From Escherichia coli (lineage in GTDB: Bacteria; Pseudomonadota; Gammaproteobacteria; Enterobacterales; Enterobacteriaceae), in NCBI RefSeq assembly GCF_030384885.1, contig NZ_CP128613.1: 64,000 nt of DNA. One strand, 5' to 3'. The number at the start of each line of letters is the position of its first letter. Position 1 is the first letter of the stretch. The notes under the pieces were generated by a model. The model was given only the letters and a program-made list of their open reading frames with translations, had not been told where the DNA came from and ran no database searches. Shown piece after piece: positions 18,338 to 62,334 of the stretch. Position numbers and translations under genes: made by a program.

Positions 18338-18659
18338 AGTAAATAGCTGACTTATGGATGTGCTGGGGATTCTATGTATTTAGCTGTGGCTTTACCATTA
18401 CTTTTCCCGTTTTTGACTTAAATAGCAATTTACCCGCCAATTCTTGCTGAACATCTATACTTTTTTTGTATTTTTATGCGATTCATTGATTTCCGCAGTA
18501 CGTGCAGTAAGGAATCGCGGAGCAACAGTGAAAGAATATTGTTGCTAATGATTTTATTTGATTGATTTCTTTATTGAAAAACAACGATGTGCTTAAAAAT
18601 CATTCGGATCGGATTGCCGCGAAAGAAGTGATACACTAGCGCGTCAATATCAGTACGGT

Positions 18660-18700
18660 ATCAGTATTCAGGTAGCTGTTGAGCCTGGGGCGGTAGCGTG
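18660..18700 (+). promoter_or_regulatory. JUMPstart region with ops element (RfaH recruitment site) in the waaQ leader
   Basis: GGCGGTAGCGTG at 18689..18700 matches the ops consensus GGCGGTAGnnTG on the non-template strand upstream of waaQ. Confidence 0.85.
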
Positions 18701-18749
18701 CTTTTTCTGCTTCACCTTAATCGGATAATCTCAACAAAAAGAGTTACTT

Positions 18750-19808
18750 GTGGATAAGCCATTTCGAAGAATTTTGCTCATTAAGATGCGTTTTCATGGG
18801 GATATGTTATTAACTACTCCCGTCATTAGTTCGCTGAAAAAAAATTACCCTGACGCAAAAATCGATGTGCTGCTTTATCAGGACACCATCCCGATCCTAT
18901 CTGAAAATCCAGAGATTAACGCGCTCTACGGCATAAAAAATAAAAAAGCAAAAGCTTCAGAAAAAATTGCCAACTTTTTTCATCTCATCAAGGTATTACG
19001 TGCCAATAAGTATGACCTTATCGTTAATCTTACCGATCAATGGATGGTTGCTATACTGGTTCGCTTATTAAATGCCCGTGTGAAAATTTCCCAGGATTAT
19101 CATCATCGGCAGTCTGCTTTTTGGCGTAAAAGCTTCACCCATCTGGTGCCGTTGCAGGGTGGAAATGTGGTGGAAAGTAACTTATCCGTGCTGACGCCAT
19201 TGGGACTTGAATCGTTGGTGAAGCAGACAACCATGAGTTACCCGCCTGCAAGCTGGAAACGTATGCGTCGCGAACTTGATCACGCAGGTGTTGGACAAAA
19301 TTATGTGGTTATCCAACCTACGGCGCGGCAAATCTTCAAATGCTGGGACAACGGCAAGTTTTCCGCTGTGATTGATGCCTTACATACACGTGGCTATGAA
19401 GTCGTTCTGACGTCCGGCCCGGATAAAGACGATCTGGCCTGCGTCAATGAAATTGCGCAGGGATGCCAGACGCCACCAGTAACGGCGTTGGCCGGAAAGG
19501 TAACCTTCCCGGAACTTGGTGCGTTAATCGATCATGCGCAGCTGTTTATTGGCGTTGATTCCGCACCGGCGCACATTGCCGCTGCAGTTAATACGCCGCT
19601 GATATCGCTGTTTGGTGCAACAGACCATATTTTCTGGCGTCCCTGGTCAAATAACATGATTCAATTCTGGGCGGGAGATTACCGGGAAATGCCAACACGC
19701 GATCAGCGTGACCGAAATGAGATGTATCTTTCGGTTATTCCGGCGGCAGATGTCATTGCTGCTGTTGATAAATTATTGCCATCCTCCACGACAGGTACGT
19801 CGTTATGA
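18750..19808 (+). CDS. waaQ: LPS heptosyltransferase III WaaQ
   Basis: GT9 heptosyltransferase-like ORF, first gene of the long waa operon; start is uncertain (GTG at 18750 or ATG at 18786). Confidence 0.88.
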   Translation: MDKPFRRILLIKMRFHGDMLLTTPVISSLKKNYPDAKIDVLLYQDTIPILSENPEINALYGIKNKKAKASEKIANFFHLIKVLRANKYDLIVNLTDQWMVAILVRLLNARVKISQDYHHRQSAFWRKSFTHLVPLQGGNVVESNLSVLTPLGLESLVKQTTMSYPPASWKRMRRELDHAGVGQNYVVIQPTARQIFKCWDNGKFSAVIDALHTRGYEVVLTSGPDKDDLACVNEIAQGCQTPPVTALAGKVTFPELGALIDHAQLFIGVDSAPAHIAAAVNTPLISLFGATDHIFWRPWSNNMIQFWAGDYREMPTRDQRDRNEMYLSVIPAADVIAAVDKLLPSSTTGTSL

Positions 19809-20929
19809 TCGTTGCTTTCTGTTTATATAAATATTTTCCCTTTGGCGGTTTGCAACGCGATTTTATGCGTATTGCTCAGACAGTCGCCGCCCGAGGTCAT
19901 CATGTTCGGGTTTATGCCCAGTCGTGGGAAGGCGAATGCCCTGATATATTTGAACTGATCAAAGTGCCGGTTAAATCGCATACCAATCACGGGCGCAATG
20001 CGGAGTATTTTGCCTGGGTGCAAAAACATTTACGTGAACATCCCGTCGATAGAGTCGTTGGATTCAACAAAATGCCGGGGCTGGACGTTTATTATGCCGC
20101 TGATGTTTGTTATGCCGAGAAAGTAGCGCAGGAGAAAGGCTTTTTCTATCGCCTGACGTCACGTTATCGCCATTATGCCGCCTTTGAGCGGGCAACCTTC
20201 GAACAGGGCAAGCCGACACAGCTGCTGATGCTGACGGACAAGCAAATCGCCGATTTCCAGAAACATTATCAGACTGAAGCGGAGCGTTTTCATATTCTGC
20301 CACCGGGGATTTATCCTGATCGTAAATATAGCCAGCAGCCAGCCAATAGCCGTGAAATCTTCCGTAAGAAGAATGGAATAACCGAACAACAATATTTATT
20401 GTTGCAGGTCGGTTCAGACTTCACGCGTAAAGGTGTTGATCGTTCCATTGAAGCACTTGCTTCATTACCGGATTCGCTGCGCCACAACACATTGCTATAT
20501 GTTGTTGGGCAGGATAAACCGCGAAAATTTGAGGCGCTGGCAGAAAAACGCGGCGTGCGCAGTAATGTTCACTTCTTCTCTGGGCGTAACGATGTCTCGG
20601 AATTAATGGCGGCGGCGGATTTATTACTGCATCCTGCCTATCAGGAAGCGGCTGGAATTGTGCTGCTGGAAGCGATTACTGCAGGATTACCGGTTCTAAC
20701 AACTGCTGTTTGTGGTTATGCGCATTATATTGTTGACGCTAATTGCGGCGAGGCTATTGCTGAGCCGTTCCGCCAGGAAACATTGAATGAGTTTTTACGC
20801 AAAGCGTTAACGCAATCTTCATTGCGCCAGGCCTGGGCTGAAAATGCGCGACATTATGCTGATACACAAGATTTATACAGTCTGCCAGAGAAAGCGGCGG
20901 ATATCATAACGGGTGGTCTGGATGGTTGA
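19805..20929 (+). CDS. waaG: LPS glucosyltransferase I WaaG (GT4)
   Basis: 374-aa [40 protein letters not shown]... Confidence 0.96.
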
Positions 20930-21719
20930 ACTGAAAGAGCCGTTTGCCACGTTATGGCGCGGTAAAGATCCTTTTGAGGAGGTTAAAACCTTGCAGGGTG
21001 AGGTATTTCGTGAACTGGAAACTCGCCGCACTCTGCGCTTTGAAATGGCGGGCAAAAGCTATTTTCTCAAATGGCATCGCGGCACGACCCTGAAAGAGAT
21101 AATCAAAAATTTACTCTCATTGCGGATGCCAGTATTAGGCGCAGACCGCGAATGGAATGCGATTCATCGGCTGCGGGATGTCGGCGTTGATACTATGTAT
21201 GGGGTGGCATTCGGCGAAAAAGGCATTAATCCGCTGACCAGAACCTCGTTTATTATAACCGAAGATCTGACACCAACCATCAGTCTGGAAGATTACTGTG
21301 CTGACTGGGCGACTAACCCTCCAGATGTTCGCGTAAAGCGTATGCTTATTAAGCGTGTCGCGACGATGGTGCGCGATATGCATGCTGCGGGCATTAACCA
21401 CCGTGACTGTTATATCTGTCATTTCCTGCTGCACTTGCCTTTTTCTGGTAGGGAAGAGGAGTTAAAAATTTCGGTAATTGACCTGCACCGGGCGCAGCTT
21501 CGCACGCGCGTTCCACGTCGTTGGCGCGATAAAGATCTTATTGGGCTTTATTTTTCTTCGATGAATATTGGCCTGACTCAGCGGGATATCTGGCGGTTCA
21601 TGAAGGTGTATTTTGCTGCCCCGCTTAAAGACATTCTCAAGCAGGAACAAGGGCTGCTGTCGCAAGCAGAAGCAAAAGCCACAAAAATCAGGGAAAGAAC
21701 GATTCGAAAATCGTTGTAA
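20922..21719 (+). CDS. waaP: LPS core heptose(I) kinase WaaP
   Basis: 265 aa from [33 protein letters not shown]... Confidence 0.95.
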
Positions 21720-21761
21720 CCCGTAACTTATTTTTGCCAAAAATTTGGATACAGAGTAAAT

Positions 21762-22769
21762 ATGTCTCAACTCAATGATAGTGACATCATCCTTTTTGAG
21801 TATAATTTTCATTATAAGAATATAAGATCTAAAAATACTCTTGATATAGCATTTGGAATTGATAGAAATTTTCTTTTTGGATGTGGTGTAGCCATTGCAT
21901 CTATTCTATTAAACAATAGCGAAATCTCTTGTGAATTTCATGTTTTCACAGATTATATCAGTGATAAAGACAAGTTATATTTTTCCGATTTAGCAAAACA
22001 ATATAATTCAAGAATTAATATTTATGTTATCAATTGTGATAAGCTGAAGTCATTACCAAGCACGAAAAACTGGACTTACGCAACATATTTTCGATTTATA
22101 ATTGCAGATTATTTCTATAGTAAACATGAAAAAATACTATATCTTGATGCAGATATTGCTTGCAAGGGTAGTATTAAAGAACTCTTAGATTATCAATTTT
22201 CTACTAATGAAATTGCCGCAGTTGTAGCTGAAAGAGATGTTGAATGGTGGCAGAATCGAGCCTCGATACTAACTACACCGCAATTAGCTTCTGGATATTT
22301 TAATGCTGGTTTTTTGCTGATAAATATTGTTGAGTGGAATCGAAATAACATTTCGTCAAAAGCTATTGAAATGTTGCGTGATCCAGATTGGGTAAGTAAA
22401 ATCACCCACCTTGATCAAGATGTCCTGAATGTATTATTGAATGGTAAAGTCAAATTTATATCAGAAAAATATAATACCCGATATAGTATTAACTATGAAT
22501 TAAAAGACAAGGTTGATAATCCAGTCAATGATGACACTGTGTTCATACACTATGTAGGGCCTACAAAACCCTGGCATGAGTGGGCTGATTATCCTGTGTC
22601 ACGTAGTTTTTTGATCGCCAAAGCTGCTTCTCCGTGGTGTAAAGAAGATTTACTTAAACCTGTAAATAGCAATCAGTATCGGTATTGCGCAAAACATAAA
22701 TTTAAACAAAAGCATTATATAGCAAGCATTCTTAATTATTTAAAATATTATAAAGAAAAATGCTTCTAA
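21762..22769 (+). CDS. waaI: Glycosyltransferase family 8 outer-core hexosyltransferase (WaaI-like, R3-type)
   Basis: GT8-type sequence with DAD motif (YLDADIACKGS); low-GC gene; the name follows the R3 gene order Q-G-P-I-Y-J-D. Confidence 0.75.
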   Translation: MSQLNDSDIILFEYNFHYKNIRSKNTLDIAFGIDRNFLFGCGVAIASILLNNSEISCEFHVFTDYISDKDKLYFSDLAKQYNSRINIYVINCDKLKSLPSTKNWTYATYFRFIIADYFYSKHEKILYLDADIACKGSIKELLDYQFSTNEIAAVVAERDVEWWQNRASILTTPQLASGYFNAGFLLINIVEWNRNNISSKAIEMLRDPDWVSKITHLDQDVLNVLLNGKVKFISEKYNTRYSINYELKDKVDNPVNDDTVFIHYVGPTKPWHEWADYPVSRSFLIAKAASPWCKEDLLKPVNSNQYRYCAKHKFKQKHYIASILNYLKYYKEKCF

Positions 22770-22794
22770 ATATTTAAGGTTAAAATACTTCATC

Positions 22795-23502
22795 ATGATA
22801 TATAATAAAACGATAAATGGGTTGAAAGTTCTCATAAAAGATAATGATCCCTTTTACGAGCAAGTTCTGAATGACTTTTTAACTTGTAGGATTAAAACAT
22901 TAAAAGTTTTTCGTTCTATTGATGATACTAAAGTCATTCTTATTGACACTGCTCGCGGACCTCTTGTGCTTAAAGTTTATGCGCCAAAGCATAAAATGGC
23001 CGAACGTTTCTTAAAATCTTGTGTCAAAAAAGATTATTATGAGAACTTAATTTATCAAACTGATCGGGTACGTGGTGAGGGCATCCAATCAATTAATGAC
23101 TATTTTTTACTTGCTGAACGTAAAACATTAAATTTCTCACATTATTATATTATGCTCATTGAGTATATTGAAGGTGTGGGGTTAAATGAGTATTCGGAAA
23201 TTTCAGAAGATCTGAAGCATCAATTATCAGAATCGATTAAAGAGTTGCATCAGCATGGAATGGTGTCTGGCGATCCTCATAAAGGAAATTTTATAGTATC
23301 CGAAAAAGGATTAAGACTAATAGACCTTTCAGGTAAAAAAACAACCGCAGTTTTAAAAGCGAAAGATCGTATTGATCTCGAACGGCACTATAATATAAAA
23401 AATGAATTGAAAGACTTTGGCTATACATACCTTGTATTCAAAAAGAAAATTAAAAAAGCAATCAGGGATGTAAAAATCAAGCTGGGATTGAAGAACAAAT
23501 AA
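22795..23502 (+). CDS. waaY: LPS core heptose(II) kinase WaaY
   Basis: 235-aa small kinase-like ORF between two GT8 genes, as expected for WaaY; low GC. Confidence 0.8.
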   Translation: MIYNKTINGLKVLIKDNDPFYEQVLNDFLTCRIKTLKVFRSIDDTKVILIDTARGPLVLKVYAPKHKMAERFLKSCVKKDYYENLIYQTDRVRGEGIQSINDYFLLAERKTLNFSHYYIMLIEYIEGVGLNEYSEISEDLKHQLSESIKELHQHGMVSGDPHKGNFIVSEKGLRLIDLSGKKTTAVLKAKDRIDLERHYNIKNELKDFGYTYLVFKKKIKKAIRDVKIKLGLKNK

Positions 23503-23526
23503 TATTTATGATGAAGGGTAACTAAA

Positions 23527-24540
23527 TTGGATTTTAAACATCTTACTCGATTTAAAGATATAATTGAACTGGACAAACGCCCTGTTAAAATTGAAGAACG
23601 GGAAACGTTCAATGTCTCATGGGGTATTGATGAGAACTACCAGATTGGGGCTGCGATTTCAATTGCTTCAATTCTTGAAAATAATAAAGAAAACAACTTC
23701 ACCTTTCACGTAATCGCTGATTACTTAGACAAAGAGTATATTGAATTATTATCACAATTAGCAACGAAATATCGAACGGTTATTAAATTATATCATATTG
23801 ATTCTGAGCCACTGAAAGCGTTACCTCAATCAAATATCTGGCCAGTATCTATTTATTATCGTTTGCTTTCATTTGATTATTTTTCTTCGCGATTAGATTC
23901 ATTATTATATCTTGATGCTGATATTGTCTGTAAGGGTTCATTAAATGAGTTACTGGAATTAGAATTTAAAGATGAATATGGTGCTGTAGTAATTGATGTT
24001 GATGCTATGCAAAGTAAAAGTGCTGAGCGTTTGTGTAATGGGGATTTTAACGGTAGCTATTTTAACTCTGGTGTAATGTATATTAATTTACGAGAATGGT
24101 TAAAACAAAGACTAACGGAGAAATTCTTTGATCTATTATCAGATGAGTCAATTATCAAAAAATTAAAGTACCCGGATCAAGATATTTTAAACTTAATGTT
24201 TCTACATCATGCTAAAATATTACCAAGAAAATATAATTGTATTTATACTATAAAATCAGAATTTGAAGAAAAAAATAGCGAATATTATACCCGTTTTATT
24301 AATGATGAAACTGTCTTCATACATTACACTGGTGTAACTAAGCCATGGCATGATTGGGCGAACTATGCATCGGCAGATTATTTTCGTAATATTTATAATA
24401 TATCTCCATGGAGAAATATACCTTATAAAAAAGCTGTTAAAAAACATGAGTATAAAGAAAAATATAAGCACTTGCTTTACCAGAAAAAATTTCTTGATGG
24501 TGTTTTTACAGCAATTAAATATAATGTTATGAAAGGTTAA
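23527..24540 (+). CDS. waaJ: Glycosyltransferase family 8 outer-core hexosyltransferase (WaaJ-like)
   Basis: Second GT8 paralogue (LYLDADIVCKGS); TTG start at 23527. Confidence 0.75.
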   Translation: MDFKHLTRFKDIIELDKRPVKIEERETFNVSWGIDENYQIGAAISIASILENNKENNFTFHVIADYLDKEYIELLSQLATKYRTVIKLYHIDSEPLKALPQSNIWPVSIYYRLLSFDYFSSRLDSLLYLDADIVCKGSLNELLELEFKDEYGAVVIDVDAMQSKSAERLCNGDFNGSYFNSGVMYINLREWLKQRLTEKFFDLLSDESIIKKLKYPDQDILNLMFLHHAKILPRKYNCIYTIKSEFEEKNSEYYTRFINDETVFIHYTGVTKPWHDWANYASADYFRNIYNISPWRNIPYKKAVKKHEYKEKYKHLLYQKKFLDGVFTAIKYNVMKG

Positions 24541-24548
24541 TATTCGAG

Positions 24549-25691
24549 ATGGTTGATAAAATAATATTTACAGTTACTCCTATTTTTTCAATTCCTCCTC
24601 GCGGAGCGGCCGCTGTTGAAACGTGGATGTATCAGGTTGCTCAGCGTACCAATTTCCCAAATCGTATTGTTTGTATCAAGAATCCAGGATACTCAAATTA
24701 CACCTTTGTTAATGATAATTGTAGTATTCATAGGGTTGGATTCAGTCGCATATATAAGCGGTTATTTCAAAAATGGACAAGACTTGATCCTCTTCCATAT
24801 TCACAGAGAATATTGAATATTGCCCATGATTTTCCTATAACGAAAGAAAGTGTTATTGTAGTTCATAATAGCATGAAGCTATACACTCAAATTCGTAAGC
24901 GAGCACCTCAGGCAAGAGTGGTTATACATATGCATAATGCATTTGAACCAAAATTGCTTGAGCAAAATGTTAAAATGATAGTGCCTAGTTTATACTTGAA
25001 AAAGTATTACCAATCTTATTTAGCAAATGCAGATATTGAGATTGTACCAAATGGAATTGATTTAGAAACCTATCAATCTACTTTTCAGCCGATCACTAGA
25101 AGCGAACTTAGTATCTCCCCTGAAGAGAAAATTATTTTTTATGCTGGGCGTATCGTCCCTGACAAAGGCATATTACTGTTGATGCAATCATTCGAAAAAT
25201 TGGCCGCTGCTCACAAAAATTTAAAATTAGTTGTGATTGGTGATTATACAGAAATGAGTAAAAGTGACAAAGGTGCATATCAACACAATGTCAGGGAAAT
25301 TGCAAAACGTTTGAAGGATCGTTGCATTATGTTAGGAAGCATACCGCCTGAAAAGATGCATTGTTATTACCCACTGGCAGATTTAGTTGTCATTCCTTCC
25401 CAGTTCCAGGAACCATTTTGCATGGTGGCAATTGAAGCTATGGGGGCTGGTAAGCCTGTTTTAGTGAGTACGCGTGGGGGGATGACGGAATTTGTCAAAG
25501 AAAATACTACGGGATTCCATTTAAAAGAACCTATGTCTGCAGACTCTATAAGCAGCGATATTTTAAAAACGTTAGCGAATCCTGAATTAACAGCAGTTGC
25601 AAAGCAAGGTCAGGATTTTGTGTTTGATCACTACAGTTGGGATGGCGTAACTCAAAGATTTGAAGAGGTCATTCATAATTGGTTTGAATAA
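24549..25691 (+). CDS. waaD: GT4 glycosyltransferase, WaaD-like (R3 core-type-specific transferase)
   Basis: 380-aa GT4-like ORF with a C-terminal E-x7-E-like region (FCMVAIEAMGAGKPVL); last gene before convergent waaL, as in R3-type clusters. Confidence 0.7.
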   Translation: MVDKIIFTVTPIFSIPPRGAAAVETWMYQVAQRTNFPNRIVCIKNPGYSNYTFVNDNCSIHRVGFSRIYKRLFQKWTRLDPLPYSQRILNIAHDFPITKESVIVVHNSMKLYTQIRKRAPQARVVIHMHNAFEPKLLEQNVKMIVPSLYLKKYYQSYLANADIEIVPNGIDLETYQSTFQPITRSELSISPEEKIIFYAGRIVPDKGILLLMQSFEKLAAAHKNLKLVVIGDYTEMSKSDKGAYQHNVREIAKRLKDRCIMLGSIPPEKMHCYYPLADLVVIPSQFQEPFCMVAIEAMGAGKPVLVSTRGGMTEFVKENTTGFHLKEPMSADSISSDILKTLANPELTAVAKQGQDFVFDHYSWDGVTQRFEEVIHNWFE

Positions 25692-25692
25692 A

Positions 25693-25722
25693 TAAAAAGG
25701 CCGCATTATGCAGCCTTTTTTA
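25693..25722. terminator. Bidirectional terminator between waaD and waaL
   Basis: aaaaaggccgcattatgcagcctttttt: imperfect hairpin flanked by A and T runs. Confidence 0.7.
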
Positions 25723-25726
25723 TTTT

Positions 25727-26935
25727 TTACTTGTTTTTCATTGCTAATAATAAGCCGGCGTAAACGCCTAATAAATTTGGTTCAATTTGTTCTACGTTTC
25801 CACGGATAACAAAATAACCTATAAAAGATAGTAAGATTATATAATATGCATTATATGGTGAGCGGTTTTTATTCTGGACGCTATTTTTTATACACTCTTT
25901 CAATATTGCGCAGTATAGCATCATAAGACTTATCAGCCCTAATAAACCAGTGCCAAACCAGATGAATAGCGCAAAATTATGTGGCCCTATCGATTGTCTA
26001 AAGGTCCATTCTGGATAATCAACGACACGTTTATTATAGACATCTTTATATGCAACGTTACCGTAACCGTAACCAATAACAGGATTTTCTAATATTAGAT
26101 CGAGTGCGCTGCCTTGAGTACCATTTGCATAGCGATAAGAACTATTAGTTTGTTGAAGTTTATACGTTAGATTTGCGGTCATCTCCTTATGTGTGAAAAT
26201 AACCGATAATGCAATGATGGAAACCATTACTCCTACTAATAGTAACTTCCATTGTTTAAACATCAGAATCCATATTAATCCAATGACTAACACGGAAAGC
26301 CAGGCTCCTCTGGATAAAGTTCCTAATATCAGAAAAATAAAAATAACGCTTAGAACCGCAAAAGAAATGCGGTATTTTGCTGATTTGATAAGCCAGAGAT
26401 TTAACAATGCAGGAAATAAAAAGACCATCGAGTCAGAAATGCTACGGTGTCTATAATCTGCAAATGGCATTACCCCTTGTTGATAGTCCTTATAATAGGC
26501 AATCAATTCAGAAAAACAACGTAAGCCCAACGCACTTATAAATGAGAAGAAAACGATTTTTTCGACATCTTCTCTTTTCTCGTCTCTCAATATGACCGGT
26601 ATTGCTATTGTGCACAGTAAAGTATTCTCAATGATAGCTTTGAAAATTTCCTTCATGCTAGCACCTGCATCTGGGGATTGAAGAAGTGATAGCAATGCAG
26701 CAATAGTTAATATGGCAACACTACCAAAAAGACATGTTTTAAATAGTGAAAGATAGTGTTTTGGCCGTTTGCAGAGATAGACGATTGTCGTTATTGTCAT
26801 AAGAATAACAATAAGATGTTTATACCTTGTAATCCCACCCAAAAAATAGGTGGTAATGAATAAGAATACGAGAGCTCTGTTCCAGTACGCTATCCAGTTT
26901 TTTTTCTCGAGAGAGAAAAATAATGTTGAGGTCAT
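25727..26935 (-). CDS. waaL: O-antigen ligase WaaL
   Basis: 402-aa polytopic membrane protein; low GC; immediately downstream of waaC, overlapping it by 4 nt. Confidence 0.85.
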   Translation of the reverse strand: MTSTLFFSLEKKNWIAYWNRALVFLFITTYFLGGITRYKHLIVILMTITTIVYLCKRPKHYLSLFKTCLFGSVAILTIAALLSLLQSPDAGASMKEIFKAIIENTLLCTIAIPVILRDEKREDVEKIVFFSFISALGLRCFSELIAYYKDYQQGVMPFADYRHRSISDSMVFLFPALLNLWLIKSAKYRISFAVLSVIFIFLILGTLSRGAWLSVLVIGLIWILMFKQWKLLLVGVMVSIIALSVIFTHKEMTANLTYKLQQTNSSYRYANGTQGSALDLILENPVIGYGYGNVAYKDVYNKRVVDYPEWTFRQSIGPHNFALFIWFGTGLLGLISLMMLYCAILKECIKNSVQNKNRSPYNAYYIILLSFIGYFVIRGNVEQIEPNLLGVYAGLLLAMKNK

Positions 26936-27924
26936 CTTATCTCCGATATCAACTTATTGGTTATTATTTCAAGATTTAAATTTTGAAAAACGGTTTGAGC
27001 TGGCAAATCTGCAAGAGACATACTTGTAGAACGACACTCTACTTGATTCTTCCCATACCCACCAATTAATCCCGGATCGGTAGGTCCATAAACCGTGATA
27101 TTGGGTCTATCCAGTGCCGCCGTTAAATGGCTTAACCCCGTATCCACCGACACCACAAATTTAGCCCCGGCCAGCACGCGGGCAACGCCTTCCAGACTCA
27201 TCTTCGGCAATACTTCAACATAAGCAAATCCTTCCGCCAGTCGTTTCGCCCGTTCTTCCTCATGCGGCGCGCCCCACGGAAGTTTAATCCGTATTCCTGA
27301 ATCAGCCAGTAAACCAATCAATTCTCGCCAGTGTTCTTCCGGCCAGTGTTTATCATCTCGGGTTGTTGCATGAAGAAATACGGCATATTCGCCAGCATCT
27401 GTAGGCAGGTTCGTCAGGAAATGCTGTGCGATAGCATAATCGCCCTGAGTCTGCGGTTTGCTATAGCCCAGACTTTTGGCAAACAGTTCGCGGGTGCGTT
27501 CTACGGCGTGCTGCTGTTTTGCAATATGATGTTTACGATTGTAAAACAGGCTGGCTAAAGGTTCGCGAGCGGTTTGCCAGTCCATTCCATGCTTTACGCC
27601 ATGCGCCAGACGCGTCACCAGCGCCGCGCTTTTTACCAGCCCCTGAGCGTCGATAATTGCGTCATAGTTCTCTGCTTGTAGCGCTTCACGAAACGCTTTC
27701 CGTTCAGCTTTTATGGGGGCCGAGAACCAGGCTTTACGCCAGCGACGTATTGCCACAGGAATAACTCGCTCAACGGCGGCGTGCCAGGAAGGAATTTGTG
27801 CGAACCCTTCTTCCACCACCCAGTCAAACTTAATCCCCGGGATTGCCTGCTGGGCATCAGTGAGTGCGGGCAACGTATGGAGAACATCGCCCATCGACGA
27901 TGTTTTAACGATCAAAACCCGCAT
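26932..27924 (-). CDS. waaC: LPS heptosyltransferase I WaaC
   Basis: ORF MRVLIVKTSSMGDVLHTLPALTDAQQAIPGIKFDWVVEEGF... Confidence 0.95.
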   Translation of the reverse strand: MRVLIVKTSSMGDVLHTLPALTDAQQAIPGIKFDWVVEEGFAQIPSWHAAVERVIPVAIRRWRKAWFSAPIKAERKAFREALQAENYDAIIDAQGLVKSAALVTRLAHGVKHGMDWQTAREPLASLFYNRKHHIAKQQHAVERTRELFAKSLGYSKPQTQGDYAIAQHFLTNLPTDAGEYAVFLHATTRDDKHWPEEHWRELIGLLADSGIRIKLPWGAPHEEERAKRLAEGFAYVEVLPKMSLEGVARVLAGAKFVVSVDTGLSHLTAALDRPNITVYGPTDPGLIGGYGKNQVECRSTSMSLADLPAQTVFQNLNLEIITNKLISEIR

Positions 27925-30204: not shown

Positions 30205-31077
30205 ATGGTCTTATTAGTAATGAAATCATCCACCACAATTATCACTGCTTATTTTGACATTGGTAGAGGGGATTGGACTGCTAATAAAGGGTTCCGTGAA
30301 AAACTGGCACGCTCAGTAGACGTTTATTTCAGTTACTTTGAGCGTCTGGCCGCACTTGAAAATGAGATGATTATTTTCACTTCTGCCGATTTGAAACCAA
30401 AGGTAGAAGCTATTCGCAACGGAAAACCAACAACGGTTATCGTTATCGATATAAAAAAGAAATTTAGACATATCAGAAGTCGTATCGAAAAAATTCAAAA
30501 AGATAAGTCATTTACAAATAGACTTGAGCCTCGACAATTAAAAAATCCAGAGTACTGGTCGCCAGAATATGTATTGGTATGTAACCTTAAAGCCTATTTT
30601 GTAAATAAAGCTATCAACATGGGGTTAGTGAAAACACCTCTTGTAGCGTGGATAGATTTTGGTTATTGCCGCAAGCCAAATGTAACACGAGGCTTGAAAG
30701 TTTGGGATTTCCCATTTGATGAAAATAAGATGCATTTTTTTACTATAAAAAAAGGGCTTACTGTCACATCTCAACAGCAGGCTTTTGATTTCATGATTGG
30801 TAACCATGTATATATTATTGGCGGCGCAATTGTTGGTTCCCAGCATAAATGGAAAGAATTCTATAAACTGGTTCTGGAAAGCCAAAAAATAACACTAAAC
30901 AATAACATTGTGGATGATGACCAGGGCATTTTTGTCATGTGCTATTACAAACGCCCCAATCTCTTCAACCTAAACTATCTGGGGAGAGGAAAATGGTTCG
31001 ATTTGTTTCGCTGCTTCAGGAGTAACACTTTAGGGGCAAAAATGCAGGCGCTGAGAATTTTTCTTTCAAGAAAATAG
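30205..31077 (+). CDS. htrL: HtrL/YibB family protein
   Basis: 290-aa low-GC ORF between hldD and kbl, matching htrL (yibB) position; start could be the Met at 30220. Confidence 0.85.
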   Translation: MVLLVMKSSTTIITAYFDIGRGDWTANKGFREKLARSVDVYFSYFERLAALENEMIIFTSADLKPKVEAIRNGKPTTVIVIDIKKKFRHIRSRIEKIQKDKSFTNRLEPRQLKNPEYWSPEYVLVCNLKAYFVNKAINMGLVKTPLVAWIDFGYCRKPNVTRGLKVWDFPFDENKMHFFTIKKGLTVTSQQQAFDFMIGNHVYIIGGAIVGSQHKWKEFYKLVLESQKITLNNNIVDDDQGIFVMCYYKRPNLFNLNYLGRGKWFDLFRCFRSNTLGAKMQALRIFLSRK

Positions 31078-33823: not shown

Positions 33824-34858
33824 ATGATGAACAGCACCAATAAACTCAGTGTTATTATCCCGTTATATAATGCGGGAGATGATTTCCGTACTTGCATGGA
33901 ATCTTTAATCGCGCAAACCTGGACTGCTCTGGAAATCATTATTATTAACGATGGTTCAACGGATAATTCTGTTGAAATAGCAAAGCATTACGCGGAAAAC
34001 TATCCGCACGTTCGTTTGCTGCATCAGGCGAATGCCGGCGCATCGGTGGCGCGTAATCGTGGGATCGAGGCGGCGACGGGTAAATATGTCGCTTTTGTCG
34101 ATGCTGACGATGAGGTCTATCCCACTATGTACGAAACGCTGATGACCATGGCGTTAGAGGACGACCTCGACGTGGCGCAGTGCAACGCTGACTGGTGTTT
34201 TCGTGAAACGGGAGAAACCTGGCAATCCATCCCCAGCGATCGCCTTCGCTCAACCGGCGTATTAACCGGCCCTGATTGGTTGCGGATGGGGCTTTCTTCC
34301 CGCCGTTGGACTCATGTTGTCTGGATGGGGGTTTATCGTCGTGATGTCATTGTTAAAAATAACATTAAATTTATTGCCGGATTACATCATCAGGATATTG
34401 TCTGGACAACAGAATTTATGTTTAACGCGCAACGCGTGCGATATACCGAGCAATCGTTATATAAATATTATTTGCATAATACGTCAGTGAGCCGATTGAA
34501 TAGACAGGGAAATAAAAACCTTAATTATCAACGCCACTATATTAAGATTACCCGACTGTTGGAAAAGTTAAATCGCGATTACGCAGACAGAATAGTGATT
34601 TACCCGGAATTTCATCAACAAATAACTTACGAAGCATTACGTGTTTGCCATGCGGTACGTAAAGAGCCAGATATTATTACCCGCCAACGGATGATTGCTG
34701 AGATATTTACTTCCGGTATGTATAAGCGCCTGATTTCCAATGTACGCAGCATAAAGGTGGGTTATCAGGCGTTACTGTGGTCTTTCCGCTTATGGCAATG
34801 GCGCGACAAAACGCGGTCGCACCATCGCATTACGCGTAGCGCCTTTAATTTGCGCTAG
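33824..34858 (+). CDS. waaH: GT2 glycosyltransferase WaaH (YibD)
   Basis: 344-aa ORF MMNSTNKLSVIIPLYNAGDDFRTCMESLIAQT... with DxD (VDADDE). Confidence 0.93.
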   Translation: MMNSTNKLSVIIPLYNAGDDFRTCMESLIAQTWTALEIIIINDGSTDNSVEIAKHYAENYPHVRLLHQANAGASVARNRGIEAATGKYVAFVDADDEVYPTMYETLMTMALEDDLDVAQCNADWCFRETGETWQSIPSDRLRSTGVLTGPDWLRMGLSSRRWTHVVWMGVYRRDVIVKNNIKFIAGLHHQDIVWTTEFMFNAQRVRYTEQSLYKYYLHNTSVSRLNRQGNKNLNYQRHYIKITRLLEKLNRDYADRIVIYPEFHQQITYEALRVCHAVRKEPDIITRQRMIAEIFTSGMYKRLISNVRSIKVGYQALLWSFRLWQWRDKTRSHHRITRSAFNLR

Positions 34859-51898: not shown

Positions 51899-52582
51899 TT
51901 ATTTTTTGTTTTTTCGCTGCCGGGTTTCAGCAGGTTGAACAGTGTCGAACTGGAGATTAGCCATATTGATGGACAACTTCAGATACTTCAGGTTATTAGG
52001 TGAAACGCCTTTTAATGTCAGATTAATGTCTTGCCATTGACCTGGCATTAATTGCAGGGTGGAGTTCATGGTGGTGTTGAACAGCAGTCGCTGCCACTTT
52101 GCCAGCGCTTTGGCATCGGTGGGTCTTTCATTGCCCCATGTGGCTTGAAAGCCAATATTTGATACGGGAACGCTTAATAGGTTGACCAGCGAAATACGAA
52201 TAACGCTGCCATTTTCAACCGCATCAATAGCCAGCACCCGGCCTGCCAAACCAACCGAGCCATTGTTTAAAATGAAGTATTTTGTTTGTGCTGGGTTAAA
52301 TTCGGTGAAGACAAATTCGTCCTGTTTGTCTTTGACTGCCTTTACTACACCCGCCAGCACTTTAGTGGTGTTTGCAATATTAATTTGTTGATTTTCAATA
52401 ATTTCTATTTTTCTTTTATATTGTTCTTGTTCTTTTTCAAGAATCTCTATTTTACTTTTTTGCAATTCTTGCTGTTTGACAAGATCGTCGATCAGATTCG
52501 CTTTCTCAATATAGTCACACCCAGTCAATACCCAGAGTGGCAATGTTATCAACATGCTTAATAGTGCTTTTTTGATGCTCAT
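51899..52582 (-). CDS. SadB-like lipoprotein encoded upstream of the adhesin
   Basis: 227-aa ORF with a lipobox (LTGC) after the signal peptide, a coiled-coil segment (QQELQKSKIEILEKEQEQYKRKIEIIENQQ) and a C-terminal domain; only 43 nt from the adhesin start on the same strand. Confidence 0.75.
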   Translation of the reverse strand: MSIKKALLSMLITLPLWVLTGCDYIEKANLIDDLVKQQELQKSKIEILEKEQEQYKRKIEIIENQQINIANTTKVLAGVVKAVKDKQDEFVFTEFNPAQTKYFILNNGSVGLAGRVLAIDAVENGSVIRISLVNLLSVPVSNIGFQATWGNERPTDAKALAKWQRLLFNTTMNSTLQLMPGQWQDINLTLKGVSPNNLKYLKLSINMANLQFDTVQPAETRQRKNKK

Positions 52583-53155
52583 AGGGTGAATTCCTTTTCA
52601 TGATCCCGATACGTTAACTGTTACGGCGTAATCATCCTTTTTATGAATGATTCGAGTGGAAAATATACGCTATATAAATTTATAAGAGACTTTTTCTATT
52701 AATTGTTGTATTAATTGGTAGTGCGAACATGACATTAAATGTCAGACAATTTCAGATTGTAGCCAATAATATTAATCGCGCGGATTTTAATGATCGATGT
52801 CAATCAATGTCAAATGTTTCACCGGATGAAAACACCGACCAGGAGAAATATTAATATTCAGCATGGTGATGTTTTCTTGGGAAGTGTGTGATTCTGAGCG
52901 ATAAATATAAATAATTAATGGCTGTTACAGGCATTAATGTGCATTAATTCATTGTTATCGCTTATATATCACTTTTTTATTCCATACCATAATTTCAGAA
53001 TTTAGCCTGTAATATGCGCTTCAAAGAGCCGGTGAGATGGAAGCAATAGTGATAAGAATGTTAAAGATATCCGATATCTGGTATCAGGCTCCTGCATGTG
53101 CCAGCAGGAGCGAGTAAATCGTGAGAGGCTGTGATTACAGCGGTGAGACAGGTAC

Positions 53156-53518
53156 TTAAAATGCGGTCTTAGAGAATCCGGTCATCTCTTGCAGGCCCAT
53201 TTCACGGCCCAGCGCGGTCATCGGATGCACAACTACCAGTCCGCGAACACTTTTCTTCAGCTTGCCCATATCAGCCTGCTCTTTTTTGGTAATCGCGCGC
53301 TGGAAGGGCATTTTCATCAGTTTTTGCGCTTCTTTACTGAGTTTCTGGCTGTGAACTTCACGCAGGCGAGCAATTTCGGCTTCCAGCGTGGCTTTTTCTT
53401 TTTCCAGTTCGGCATATTTATCTGCGGCTTCAACCAGTGACAGGTCAGCCTGCTGATGGCGGATAGCGTCCAGGCGATCGCTGAGACGTTTGATTTCGTT
53501 TTTTTCGACTTCTTTCAT
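53156..53518 (-). CDS. yibL: YibL (DUF2810, ribosome-associated protein)
   Basis: 120-aa [58 protein letters not shown]... Confidence 0.93.
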
Positions 53519-58801: not shown

Positions 58802-59938
58802 ATGGATCTATTGATTGTTTTAACTTACGTGGCGCTGGCGTGGGCGGTCTTTAAAATCTTCCGCATTCCGGTAAATCAGTGGACGCTGGCGACGGCGGCG
58901 CTGGGAGGCGTGTTTCTGGTGAGTGGTTTGATTTTGTTGATGAACTACAACCACCCTTACACTTTTACCGCACAGAAAGCGGTGATTGCTATTCCCATCA
59001 CGCCACAGGTGACGGGGATCGTGACTGAAGTCACTGACAAGAATAATCAGCTTATTCAGAAGGGCGAGGTGCTTTTTAAGCTCGACCCGGTACGTTATCA
59101 GGCGCGAGTCGACAGGCTTCAGGCTGACCTGATGACGGCGACGCATAATATAAAGACACTGCGCGCGCAGCTCACTGAAGCGCAAGCCAATACCACCCAG
59201 GTTTCAGCGGAGCGTGACCGCTTGTTTAAAAATTATCAACGTTACCTGAAAGGCAGCCAGGCGGCGGTAAATCCGTTCTCGGAACGTGACATCGACGATG
59301 CGCGGCAAAACTTCCTCGCGCAGGATGCGCTGGTGAAAGGTTCGGTGGCGGAACAGGCGCAAATCCAGAGCCAGCTCGACAGTATGGTTAACGGTGAGCA
59401 GTCGCAGATTGTCAGCTTAAGGGCGCAGCTTACTGAAGCAAAATATAACCTTGAGCAGACCGTCATTCGCGCGCCGAGCAATGGCTACGTTACTCAGGTA
59501 CTGATCCGCCCAGGTACATACGCAGCTGCCTTGCCGCTACGTCCGGTGATGGTTTTCATCCCCGAGCAAAAACGGCAAATTGTCGCCCAATTTCGGCAGA
59601 ACTCGCTGTTACGTCTGAAACCCGGCGATGATGCGGAAGTGGTGTTTAACGCGCTACCTGGGCAGGTGTTCCACGGCAAACTGACTAGTATTTTACCTGT
59701 CGTGCCAGGCGGTTCGTATCAGGCGCAGGGGGTACTGCAATCATTAACGGTCGTACCCGGCACGGACGGTGTGCTGGGAACCATCGAACTGGACCCTAAC
59801 GATGATATCGATGCCTTACCCGACGGCATCTACGCCCAGGTGGCAGTTTACTCCGACCATTTCAGCCATGTTTCGGTGATGCGGAAGGTGCTGCTAAGAA
59901 TGACCAGTTGGATGCATTATCTTTATTTGGATCATTGA
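58802..59938 (+). CDS. yibH: HlyD-family membrane fusion protein YibH
   Basis: 378-aa ORF with an N-terminal TM helix and coiled coils, adjacent to yibI. Confidence 0.92.
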
Positions 59939-60395
59939 GGGGGGCGGGGGAGATTATGGAACTTTGCTCCCTGCAAGGACTAATTATTTTTGCATATTAT
60001 TTCATCGGCTGTGATGATTTTTCGTTAATATCCATTATGTTAAGAAGTTCGGGATGAGTGTGAACTCATTGGATTTTTTATCCGTCTTGATCTGCCGAAG
60101 GATCAGACTATACATTGTCGAGATCGCAATGATGATATGAGTTGTTCCTCTGCCACGACTCTAATCAAAAAAGAGCAGGAGTGCTTTTCCATCTATTGCG
60201 ATGATGGCTTTATTATCTGAAGGATGACAATCACATTTAAAAATATATAATTTATAGATCACAATATAGGTTCATGGAATATATGTATACAACTATTTTT
60301 CTCTTCACTTTTAATTATCGCATTCATTATAACACTAAGTTAAAAAAACTCCTGGAGAGTGAGTTATTAATATATTTTTAAATATAATTAAGTTA

Positions 60396-60917
60396 TTATT
60401 CATCGATGCATTTTATAGAATCATCAATGGCTACAATAGTACTATTAACTCTCCAATTTATATTTTTATTATCATTGCAAATATTAACTGAATCTATATC
60501 AATGATTTTTCTATTTTTATCTTTTATTTTATTTACAGTTTCAATGCAATCAGCGACAAGTTGGTGTGGATTTAGATTCTTCAGATATGGTCTTATGATC
60601 TTTCCCTTGCTTAATAAATAGCATGTATAGGATTCGGAAAGTCCAGCATCTATTTTGTACATCATTATTCTAGATAAGGATGTGAGAAATGCCTTGTTAT
60701 CATTAGCAGCCATATATGCCAGTCCGAGTTCAGCCTCTGCGGCTTTACATGAAAAATAGCTAAATGAACACGCTTTTCGTCCCTCTTGGGTACTGGCTGA
60801 TATTAGTGCCCATAATATTGCCTTGTCTGCCAAATCCAACTCTCTCTGAAATTGGTTTACAGTAACTGCATTCGCAGAAATAGAGAAAAAAAGCACAATT
60901 GTTAATAACCTTGCCAT
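60396..60917 (-). CDS. Putative secreted immunity protein for the orphan Rhs toxin tip
   Basis: 173-aa, very AT-rich ORF starting 4 nt after the stop of the orphan rhs fragment; N-terminal signal peptide (MARLLTIVLFFSISANA); immunity role inferred from position. Confidence 0.6.
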   Translation of the reverse strand: MARLLTIVLFFSISANAVTVNQFQRELDLADKAILWALISASTQEGRKACSFSYFSCKAAEAELGLAYMAANDNKAFLTSLSRIMMYKIDAGLSESYTCYLLSKGKIIRPYLKNLNPHQLVADCIETVNKIKDKNRKIIDIDSVNICNDNKNINWRVNSTIVAIDDSIKCIDE

Positions 60918-60921
60918 ATTT

Positions 60922-62334
60922 CTAGTCCGTCACTGTTAATGTGCTATCTGGCTCTGAAAATATTAGCCCATTTAATTTTTGCATGTCATTAGATGAACCA
61001 GTTATACAACCCTCGGAACAGAATCGAGGTCCTAAAGATGGACCAAAAGCGTTTAAACAACTATGTGTTAAAAATCCATCACGATTATACGTTTCTGTAT
61101 TTGCTGACGGTACTAAACGTATACCATTAGGTTTTCTATTAGTTGCTCCAGGACCATTAACATTCCAGGTCCATACCCCTTGAGGTATTGGGCCTCTATT
61201 TTGTAAGTGTGTACAACCAGGATTATTTTTACATTGCATATTATTACCATTATTACCAGAGGCGACTGAAATAGTAAGCACACCATAAGAATTATCATCA
61301 CTTGGCGTATCTGAAACGCATGAAAGCATACCTAAAGTTATGCTGTATAAACAGGTCGCTAATCCCAACGGGTCAATATCAGTTATCGGATTCAACGGAT
61401 ACTGATAAAAATTCCATCCCCCCTTCAGCCCAATCGGATCCTGAGTGATATACCGCCCCTGCAGCGGGTCATAATAGCGGTGGCGGTTGTAATACAGGCC
61501 GGACTCCTCATCATACTGCTGACCCGGCAGGCGGATGAGCTGCTGCAGCTGGTGCGGGTTCTCTTCATTCAGCAGGTTGCCCCATTCATCATATTCTGCG
61601 TACCACGCTGTTGCCCCTTCCGTGCTGACAAGCGCCAGCGGCAGGCCGCGATGGTCGCAGTGGTACAGGTGGATTTTTCGCGCCGGCGTGTACACCGGGT
61701 CCATCTGGTTTTGCATCTGCTCCACCGTCAGGCCGCACGATGCCAGCCAGCGGCGGCTTTCCTCACTCACCCGGTCAGCCAGGATTTCACTTTCCAGCCG
61801 GTCGAGCATCTGCACCAGCACCGGCGGGAACACCACATGGCCTCCGTCTTCGCCGCCGGACTGCTGAAGGGCATCCGCCAGGCTGCGGCGCTGCGTTTTC
61901 GCCAGCTCACCGGTGGCGGTTTCGACCCTGATGAGTGGCGTGAAACTTCCCGGCAGGTATACCGTCTGGATGCGGGTTCTGTCGTTCTGTATCGTGGTCA
62001 GCCGGTCGCCATCCCAGCCGTACCAGGTCACTTCCGGTTTCCTTGACAGCGACATCCAGCCCGTCAGGTCCCGTTCACGCCGCCACACCCGTTTTGCCAC
62101 CCTGCGGCCCAGCGGGTCGTAAAGATAGCGACTTTCGACCAGCGGCTCTGCATATTGTGTCCGCGTGTAGTGCACCAGCCGGTGCCGGCTGTCGTAATGG
62201 TACCGGTGAGTCCGCTCATCATCCGTGCGGATAACCCCTTCCGGGATGAGGTCGGTTTTCTCCGTCAGCCTGCCGTGACGGTCATACCGGTAAAGATAGT
62301 GCGCGTCACGGGCGATACGGTTATCCGGCCACAT
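60922..62334 (-). CDS. Orphan Rhs C-terminal fragment: core repeats plus alternative toxin tip
   Basis: N-terminal ~320 aa identical to the upstream rhs 3' region (YD-repeat core ending ...[27 protein letters not shown]); followed by a ~145-aa divergent, low-GC C-terminal domain containing THSC...SEGCITG. Confidence 0.85.
61385..62133. repeat. Direct repeat copy A (rhs core 3' segment), identical to 63252..64000
   Basis: The identical antisense ORFs 61480..62046 and 63347..63913 (188 aa) and direct base comparison show an offset of 1867 bp; identity runs to the window edge. Confidence 0.9.

Follow-up and report, generated by a model that had tools for sequence, protein, structure and literature searches.

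An apparently functional R3-type lipopolysaccharide outer-core block in the waa locus of Escherichia coli

Within the window, the 64,000-nt stretch of an Escherichia coli genome (contig NZ_CP128613.1) that we analysed, the ORF map placed the conserved 5′ part of the waaQ operon on the plus strand, with waaQ (18750–19808) as the first gene, followed by waaG (19805–20929) and waaP (20922–21719). The operon continued on the same strand with waaI, named waaO by PGAP (21762–22769, 335 aa, GT8), waaY (22795–23502, 235 aa, LPS core heptose(II) kinase), waaJ (23527–24540, 337 aa, GT8, TTG start) and waaD (24549–25691, 380 aa, GT4). These were met by waaL on the minus strand (25727–26935, 402 aa, R3-type O-antigen ligase), and downstream of the block waaC (26932–27924, 330 aa, heptosyltransferase I), waaF and rfaD were also on the minus strand. 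Pfam searches identified Glyco_transf_8 and Glyco_transf_8C in the waaI and waaJ ORFs, WaaY (PF06176) in the waaY ORF, Glycos_transf_1 (PF00534, GT4) in the waaD ORF and Wzy_C in the waaL ORF. NCBIfam was in agreement, with the RfaY, RfaL and WaaO equivalog models all exceeding their cut-offs. The series foreseen in the original prediction, in which waaQ-waaG-waaP are followed by a GT8 gene, a WaaY-like kinase gene, a second GT8 gene, a GT4 gene and a convergent waaL, was therefore confirmed, with exact ORF positions. Its limits for the block (21762–26935) were exact for the ORFs, while the type-specific DNA turned out to be about 150 bp larger, extending from 21720 to approximately 27044.

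The individual products were then compared with family models and reference proteins. WaaI scored 610 bits against NF011718 (cut-off 461), was 97.0% identical (aa) to the protein of O157:H7 EDL933 and at most 58% identical to those of other core types, and presented the motifs DAD at residue 129 and HYVGPTKPW at residue 263. WaaY (NF007684, 381 bits) was 94.9% identical to EDL933 and 51–58% identical to other types, with DPHKGN at residue 160 and IDLS at residue 176, while WaaD (NF012028, 764 bits) was 98.9% identical to EDL933 and carried an EX7E motif at residue 288. WaaL (NF012031, 688 bits) was 97.0% identical to EDL933 and 51% identical to R2 WaaL, with no match in the R1, R4 and K-12 reference loci. 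A sequence search of the PDB gave no match for R3 WaaL, and for WaaJ and WaaD it returned only generic GT8 and GT4 structures (LgtC and MshA-like enzymes). All block genes were intact, with full-length ORFs, zero internal stops and no frameshift or IS insertion, and dN/dS against EDL933 was 0.08–0.21, indicating purifying selection. The full-length ORFs, the catalytic motifs and this dN/dS range ruled out a pseudogenised locus.

The core type was assigned by comparing the block with reference loci of each type, which were typed independently by in silico PCR and all typed correctly. The outer-core proteins all had their best matches in EDL933 R3 (94.9–98.9% aa, full length), while the best matches of the two GT8 proteins, the GT4 protein, WaaY and WaaL in the R1, R2, R4 and K-12 loci reached only 41–58%. 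The outcome named in advance as refuting the original prediction, GT8 and GT4 proteins matching another core type best, was not obtained. The gene order was identical to that of EDL933 and differed from those of K-12, R1, R2 and R4, in agreement with the predicted R3 layout. The K-12 layout against which it had been set does differ from the window, although its last gene is now waaU and not waaK. When core typing was performed in silico with the R3 primers and expected 1,021-bp size taken from PMC13293308, both primers matched exactly (23611–23633 and 24612–24631), giving a plus-strand amplicon of 1,021 bp with 0 mismatches at 23611–24631, with R3-R in waaJ and R3-F in waaD. None of the R1, R2, R4 and K-12 primer pairs matched the window with up to 4 mismatches allowed, a single K-12 primer having a lone 3-mismatch match in waaY. 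Furthermore, the waaI, waaJ and waaD deletion primers for the R3 prototype and Shigella flexneri 2457T matched the corresponding ORFs with 0–2 mismatches, with the exception of the 80-nt R3-waaJ-up arm, which had 8. No observation contradicted the assignment to R3, and taken together these results leave very little doubt that the block represents the R3 core type of the waa (rfa) locus in E. coli, intact and, judging from its sequence, apparently functional. As such it is already known biology and a matter of routine annotation, the type being that carried by O157:H7.

Gene content, order, type identity and intactness were thus read directly from the window and the reference loci, and junctions, composition and population frequency were determined in the same way. 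The GC content of the block was 0.332, compared with 0.494 in the left flank and 0.521 in the right flank, and GC3 was 0.22–0.33 in the block genes and 0.45–0.62 in the flanking genes. No other 5.2-kb stretch of the window was as low in GC as the block, which lay approximately 7 SD below the mean of non-overlapping 5.2-kb windows (mean 0.510, SD 0.024). The AT-richness relative to waaP and waaC that had been noted for the block is therefore real, but it is not a hallmark of R3: the cassettes of all five core types have a GC content of 0.33–0.35 with flanks of 0.44–0.52, so that low GC characterises the locus in general rather than this one type. Junction alignments, together with the GC content, delimited the R3-specific segment at 21720–27044. 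On the left, similarity to R1 and R4 ended at base 21720, directly behind the waaP stop, and on the right it returned inside waaC, at gene nt 880 in codon 294 (~27044). Accordingly, the last 36 residues of WaaC (26932–27044) were R3-specific, the tails of the other types being unrelated and 24–29 residues long. The interiors of the cassettes were at most 67% identical (nt) between types or unalignable, and the waaQ-waaG-waaP allele was 97–98% identical (nt) to R1 and R4 and only 71–79% identical to R2 and K-12. Sharp breakpoints in conserved flanks, an interior unalignable between types and a GC content of 0.33 against 0.51 bear out the proposal of a horizontally exchanged cassette, which is the established view of the core locus.

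To place the block in the population, we searched 5426 complete E. coli genomes, of which 1363 carried the R3 block. The DNA identity of waaI was bimodal over this set, with 1363 genomes at 90% or more and 4060 at 60–80%. In a published survey (PMC13293308), R3 accounted for 25.8% overall and for 97.9% of EHEC, and it was found in phylogroups A, B1, D and E. The block itself was 100% identical in 11 complete genomes and 96.4% identical to EDL933; the present allele is thus a rare R3 variant, identical in 11 of the 1363 R3 genomes. Compared with the common R3 allele, it was 4–6% apart (nt) in waaI, waaY and waaJ and 1.5–2.3% apart in waaD and waaL, with waaJ as its most divergent gene (95.0% nt identity to EDL933).

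We considered whether these features could have another origin. A block of another core type, or an inter-type hybrid, might be suggested by the finding that the nearest non-R3 relatives of WaaD (56.5% aa) and WaaL (51% aa) are in the R2 locus, and inter-type hybrids, including R2/K-12 hybrids, are known (PMC13293308). However, all five genes were 94.5–98.5% identical (nt) to EDL933 R3, the nearest protein of any other type being at most 58% identical; no primer pair of another type matched, and the gene order was unlike that of any other type. With all five genes being R3, the primer tests and protein identities exclude a hybrid core type, and we regard this explanation as having virtually no chance of being correct. 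The contrast in GC (0.33 against 0.51) and junctions sharp to the base could also be taken to reflect a recent import from outside E. coli into the present strain. Against this, one in four complete E. coli genomes carries the same cassette with the same junctions, R3 is spread across phylogroups A, B1, D and E (PMC13293308), the cassette differs from other R3 copies to a similar extent as the flanks do, and all four alternative cassettes are equally low in GC. We also found no mobility genes or repeats flanking the block, and on these grounds a recent foreign import was rejected as very improbable.

Our results fit instead with the R3 cassette being an old species-wide polymorphism and not a recent event in the present strain. 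The 5.3-kb low-GC segment is one of five alternative cassettes at the same E. coli site, and these pass from lineage to lineage when the conserved flanks recombine homologously, with waaP on the left and waaC, waaF and rfaD on the right. It is also conceivable that the allele is a chemically distinct R3 sub-variant, in which divergent waaI-waaY-waaJ alleles alter linkage or donor specificity and yield a modified core. The products of these three genes have 10–14 amino acid changes each, the allele occurs in only 11 of the 1363 R3 genomes, the next closest R3 genome (98.3%) is an intra-R3 recombinant, and the waaJ region is 93–96% identical to all other sampled R3 loci. Nevertheless, the divergence is mostly synonymous (dN/dS 0.08–0.10 for waaI, waaY and waaJ), with lengths and motifs unchanged, the housekeeping-like flanking genes are about equally divergent from EDL933 (waaA 95.8% and rfaD 96.5% nt), and the R3 typing primers match the allele perfectly, so we consider a sub-variant of this kind highly unlikely.

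The leader of waaQ contained a JUMPstart element with an ops motif on the plus strand (18662–18700; Rfam RF01707, 55.2 bits against a gathering score of 35, E 6e-10), the ops motif GGCGGTAG being located at 18689–18696. By homology and from the literature, this is the predicted RfaH antitermination signal of the long waaQ operon, including the AT-rich block. Under such regulation, waaI, waaY, waaJ and waaD would form the distal part of the operon, and RfaH recruited at the upstream JUMPstart/ops site would keep RNA polymerase elongating through AT-rich DNA. At the other end of the block, a palindromic GC-rich hairpin with an A-run and a T-run at its sides (25694–25720) occupies the 35 nt that separate waaD from the convergent waaL. 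Its folding energy was −11.9 kcal/mol on the plus strand and −16.4 kcal/mol on the minus strand (z −3.4 and −5.7, respectively), and it was 100% conserved in EDL933, suggesting that it is likely to be a bidirectional intrinsic terminator, at which both convergent operons probably end. Scanned for promoters and terminators, the block showed no excess over shuffled sequence (29 promoters against 31.7 and 11 terminators against 11.8), and from the terminator scan we retained only the waaD/waaL hairpin, which was backed by folding. The convergent rfaD-waaF-waaC-waaL operon ends with waaL, whose ATG overlaps the waaC stop codon (ATGA, 4 nt) and which would be translationally coupled to waaC.

Since the window proteins are 95–99% identical to those of the R3 strains described in the literature, we assigned them the R3 enzyme roles reported in PMC9927288 and PMC3184986; the sugar specificities and the LPS chemistry given here are accordingly those predicted from close homology. 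WaaG would add GlcI onto HepII, after which WaaI, described in R3 as an alpha-1,3-galactosyltransferase acting on GlcI (PMC9927288), would add alpha-1,3-Gal as HexII. WaaJ would then add alpha-1,2-Glc as HexIII (role from PMC9927288), and WaaD would place a further Glc onto HexIII. For WaaD the sources are in conflict: PMC9927288 describes a glucosyltransferase placing a glucose substituent onto HexIII, whereas PMC3184986 attributes GlcNAc to it, and a GlcNAc transferase is also what both PGAP and NCBIfam call the protein, the PGAP name being based on homology to R2 WaaK (56.5% aa). WaaY would phosphorylate HepII, and WaaL would ligate undecaprenyl-PP-linked O-antigen to the finished core. The R3 type is characterised chemically by a core oligosaccharide GlcI-Gal(GlcNAc)-GlcII-GlcIII and serologically by reactivity with R3-specific antibody. 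Its full core also needs genes outside the block, wabB (HepIII GlcNAc) and that of the outer-core GlcNAc enzyme (10.1101/536201), so the block alone is insufficient to specify the full structure. Recognition of rough or partly rough cells by particular phages and antibodies is determined by the core type, which also sets the acceptor that WaaL uses when attaching O-antigen. In epidemiology the core type serves as a useful marker, with R3 dominating EHEC.

A further low-GC gene, yibB/htrL, was observed at 30220–31077; it belongs to the uncharacterised HtrL_YibB family and is labelled 'WlaTC/HtrL family glycosyltransferase' by PGAP. When an R3 query running from waaL to yibB was used, it was covered to at least 80% in exactly 1363 genomes, the same number as carry R3, and since coverage would stop at 78% in an R3 genome lacking yibB, the gene is apparently present in every R3 genome. 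In 451 genomes it was found beside a K-12-type waaL, which by an estimate from row sampling amounts to roughly 40% of the genomes of that type, and it was absent at the R1, R2 and R4 loci examined. A PDB sequence search gave no match for YibB, and in the literature on htrL/yibB we found no functional study. According to a 2019 preprint (10.1101/536201, citing Kaniuk 2004), WabB modifies HepIII, and no enzyme has been assigned to the step that attaches the outer-core GlcNAc to Gal in R3. We therefore raise, as a long shot, the speculation that the functional R3 unit reaches 3 kb past the block to yibB and that YibB is the outer-core GlcNAc enzyme or another R3-linked core modifier; plain physical linkage could equally explain the association. 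The perfect co-occurrence of yibB with R3 is the only lead with some discovery value, the block itself advancing no open question, and it is worth something because one R3 outer-core transferase reportedly still awaits assignment.

Compared with known core loci, the window shared content, order, orientation, lengths and junctions with the R3 loci of O157:H7 EDL933, E. coli 042 and Shigella flexneri 2457T. With respect to EDL933, proteins were 95–99% identical, the waaD-waaL hairpin was identical and the typing amplicon was of the same size, with no architectural difference; the window departs from the R3 references only as a rare allele (4–6% and 1.5–2.3% nt for the two groups of genes). The R2 locus, and the Salmonella-like waaK/waaL arrangement, resemble it in that waaL follows waaC on the same strand, and in R2 the last plus-strand gene is likewise a GT4 of the WaaK/WaaD subfamily (NF012028). 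R2 differs in carrying four additional genes (a GT8 occupying the waaS position, waaB and waaZ, with the genes around waaY ordered differently) and a divergent waaQGP allele family (71–79% nt), and its primers have no match in the window. R1 and R4 have in common with the window the waaQGP allele family (97–98% nt) and the left junction right after the waaP stop, but they carry waaO-waaT-waaY-waaW with waaV (GT2, R1) or waaX (GT25, R4), and their waaL lies on the strand of the waaQ operon, with no detectable similarity to the WaaL of the window. Finally, K-12 presents the same three-operon architecture, JUMPstart leader and waaL after waaC, and yibB/htrL is present in K-12 laboratory strains, while its gene order is waaS-waaB-waaO-waaJ-waaY-waaZ-waaU, its proteins are at most 57% identical and its WaaL shows no similarity to that of the R3 block.

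The five open reading frames of the block at 21762–26935 occupied exactly the positions originally predicted, and Pfam searches recovered the same order of GT8, WaaY, GT8, GT4 and convergent waaL. The first gene, waaI (21762–22769, + strand, 335 aa), encodes a GT8 and a GT8 C-terminal domain and matched the NCBIfam WaaO equivalog with 610 bits. It is followed by waaY (22795–23502, +, 235 aa; Pfam WaaY, NCBIfam RfaY), waaJ (23527–24540, +, 337 aa, TTG start; Pfam GT8, with a sub-threshold match to NCBIfam WaaO), waaD (24549–25691, +, 380 aa; Pfam Glycos_transf_1, NCBIfam WaaK/WaaD-type subfamily, 764 bits) and waaL (25727–26935, − strand, 402 aa; Pfam Wzy_C, NCBIfam RfaL, 688 bits). Upstream lie waaA (−) and then waaQ, waaG and waaP (+), and downstream waaC, waaF and rfaD (−), followed by yibB, kbl and tdh (+). 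The start codon of waaL overlaps the waaC stop codon as ATGA, indicating that waaL is the last gene of an rfaD-waaF-waaC-waaL operon convergent with the waaQ operon. All five frames were intact. WaaI and WaaJ both contain the expected DXD and HxxGxxKPW motifs, WaaD contains EX7E and WaaY carries kinase motifs; dN/dS values relative to EDL933, the O157:H7 strain serving as published R3 reference, were 0.08–0.21.

To assign the core type, we ran a sensitive waaI search of E. coli genomes, took one or two reference loci per type according to their identity band and typed them with the primers of PMC13293308 as R1 (L008), R2 (L004), R3 (L002, EDL933), R4 (L006 and L007) and K-12 (L003 and L005). 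In tblastn comparisons, the proteins were most similar to those of EDL933 (WaaI 97.0%, WaaY 94.9%, WaaJ 95.5%, WaaD 98.9% and WaaL 97.0%), while the best non-R3 matches reached 58% for WaaI, 58% for WaaY, 44% for WaaJ, 56.5% for WaaD (R2 WaaK) and 51% for WaaL (R2 WaaL); the R1, R4 and K-12 reference loci gave no WaaL hit. Thus, neither the GT8 proteins nor the GT4 protein had its best match in an R1, R2, R4 or K-12 locus. The R3-specific primers matched exactly at 23611–23633 and 24612–24631, defining a 1,021-bp product of the published size, while no R1, R2, R4 or K-12 primer pair from the same survey matched the window. Primers published for deleting waaI, waaJ and waaD in the R3 prototype strain and in S. 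flexneri 2457T fell on the matching frames with 0–2 mismatches, except for the 80-nt R3-waaJ-up arm with 8, which fixes these gene names. Taken together, the protein comparison and the primers support the R3 type originally proposed. By megablast, the full-length block was present in 1,363 of 5,426 complete E. coli genomes (25.1%), always chromosomal and in single copy, EDL933 being among the matches (96.4% over the block).

Several product names require caution. PGAP calls WaaD a 'lipopolysaccharide N-acetylglucosaminyltransferase', a name transferred from WaaK (56.5% identical) through membership of the WaaK subfamily; this conflicts with PMC9927288, where the R3 WaaD is a glucosyltransferase, and that source in turn disagrees with PMC3184986, which attributes GlcNAc to WaaD. 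PGAP also labels WaaO/WaaI of every core type '3-alpha-galactosyltransferase', although the MG1655 record gives the K-12 WaaO as a glucosyltransferase. The heptose epimerase named in PMC13293308 as target of the R3 'waaD' primer is a name collision, as that paper also applies the name waaD to rfaD/gmhD.

A JUMPstart element including an ops motif precedes waaQ by 50 nt. Between waaD and waaL, the 35 nt of intergenic DNA are taken up by a strong palindromic hairpin that has A and T runs and is identical in EDL933. By analogy with the literature on R3 strains, waaQGP-IYJD would be transcribed in an RfaH-dependent manner, WaaI would add Gal as HexII, WaaJ Glc as HexIII and WaaD Glc on HexIII, while WaaY would phosphorylate HepII and WaaL ligate the O-antigen. 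Two R3 core residues are encoded outside the block, the HepIII GlcNAc added by the plasmid-borne WabB and an outer-core GlcNAc on Gal whose enzyme was reported as unknown (10.1101/536201). This strain also carries waaH (33824–34858, +), encoding a UDP-glucuronate:LPS(HepIII) glycosyltransferase; according to the same preprint, the R3 core shows no GlcUA modification, as its HepIII bears GlcNAc.

The exchanged segment extends from 21720 to about 27044. On the left, similarity to the R1 and R4 loci stopped at the base right after the waaP stop codon (21720), and on the right it returned inside waaC (~27044), at codon 294 (gene position 880). Consequently, WaaC ends in a type-specific tail that differs in each of the five types, also in length: its last 36 residues (26932–27044, −) are particular to R3, the tails of the other types have 24–29 residues, and WaaC is 330 aa long here versus 318–323 aa elsewhere. 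The waaQ-waaG-waaP genes and the waaA-waaQ spacer (18338–21719) form two allele families. R1, R3 and R4 share 97–98% nucleotide identity with the window in waaQGP, versus 71–79% for R2 and K-12 (L004 and L003), which also differ in the spacer, so that the exchange unit of these two types is larger.

The AT-richness predicted for the block was borne out, with a GC content of 0.332 versus 0.494 and 0.521 in its flanks and a GC3 of 0.22–0.33 versus 0.45–0.62 in flanking genes; no other 5.2-kb stretch of the window had a lower GC content, and the block fell about 7 sd below the remaining stretches of this length. The cassettes of all five core types had GC contents of 0.33–0.35 and their flanks 0.44–0.52, indicating that low GC belongs to the locus whatever its core type and is no evidence for a recent event in this particular strain. 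The block is not flanked by mobility genes. The pattern agrees with the textbook view of an old polymorphism, in which homologous recombination in conserved flanks reshuffles the alternative cassettes. Two further low-GC islands (0.33–0.41) occur at 52000–53500, covering a DUF3251 gene next to a YadA-like gene, and at 59750–61500, covering an Imm57 immunity gene along with the variable tip at the C-terminal end of an RHS element, which runs on to the window end.

Within R3, the allele is rare: the 5.3-kb segment was 100% identical in 11 of the 1363 R3 genomes, from varied hosts, the next best copy was 98.3% identical and the bulk 96.4–97.2%. Sliding comparison of 21720–27044 with L002 and two other loci (L011 and L012) revealed mosaic structures inside R3 cassettes. 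One strain, 2017-02-2CC, was 99–100% identical to the window in waaI-waaY and waaD-waaL and carried the common waaJ allele (93.5–96%), while E. coli 042 reached 99–100% only from waaD to waaL and ~95% in waaI-waaJ. As the flanks diverge from EDL933 similarly (waaA 95.8%, rfaD 96.5%), the allele comes from a different lineage and is no outlier. Strain 2013C-4282 was 99.9% identical to the window, yet is a distinct sequence; the main difference, roughly 850 bp, lies in the repeat copy number of the 5.9-kb gene for the YadA-like trimeric autotransporter (~46828–52707, −), whose tandem repeats show ~213-bp register shifts, especially at 49435–50361.

Beside the locus lies yibB/htrL (30220–31077, +; GC 0.37), whose product matched Pfam HtrL_YibB, of uncharacterized function, and is also named 'WlaTC/HtrL family glycosyltransferase' by PGAP; a search found no PDB relatives. 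The gene was present in 1,957 of the 5,426 genomes. Exactly as many genomes as carry R3, 1,363, covered at least 80% of a query running from R3 waaL to yibB. Without yibB, an R3 genome would cover only 78%, and no such case occurred among the matches listed, so that yibB is apparently present in all R3 genomes. The corresponding K-12 query reached at least 80% coverage in only 451 genomes, with about 640 K-12-type genomes estimated from row sampling to lack the gene, which was also absent from the fetched R1, R2 and R4 loci and from one B2 K-12-type locus. The association may reflect physical linkage, the gene being only 3 kb away, or, with low probability, a functional relationship.

The R3 core locus is an already known feature, and the block frequency obtained here agrees with the survey PMC13293308, in which R3 accounted for 25.8% of genomes and 97.9% of EHEC.
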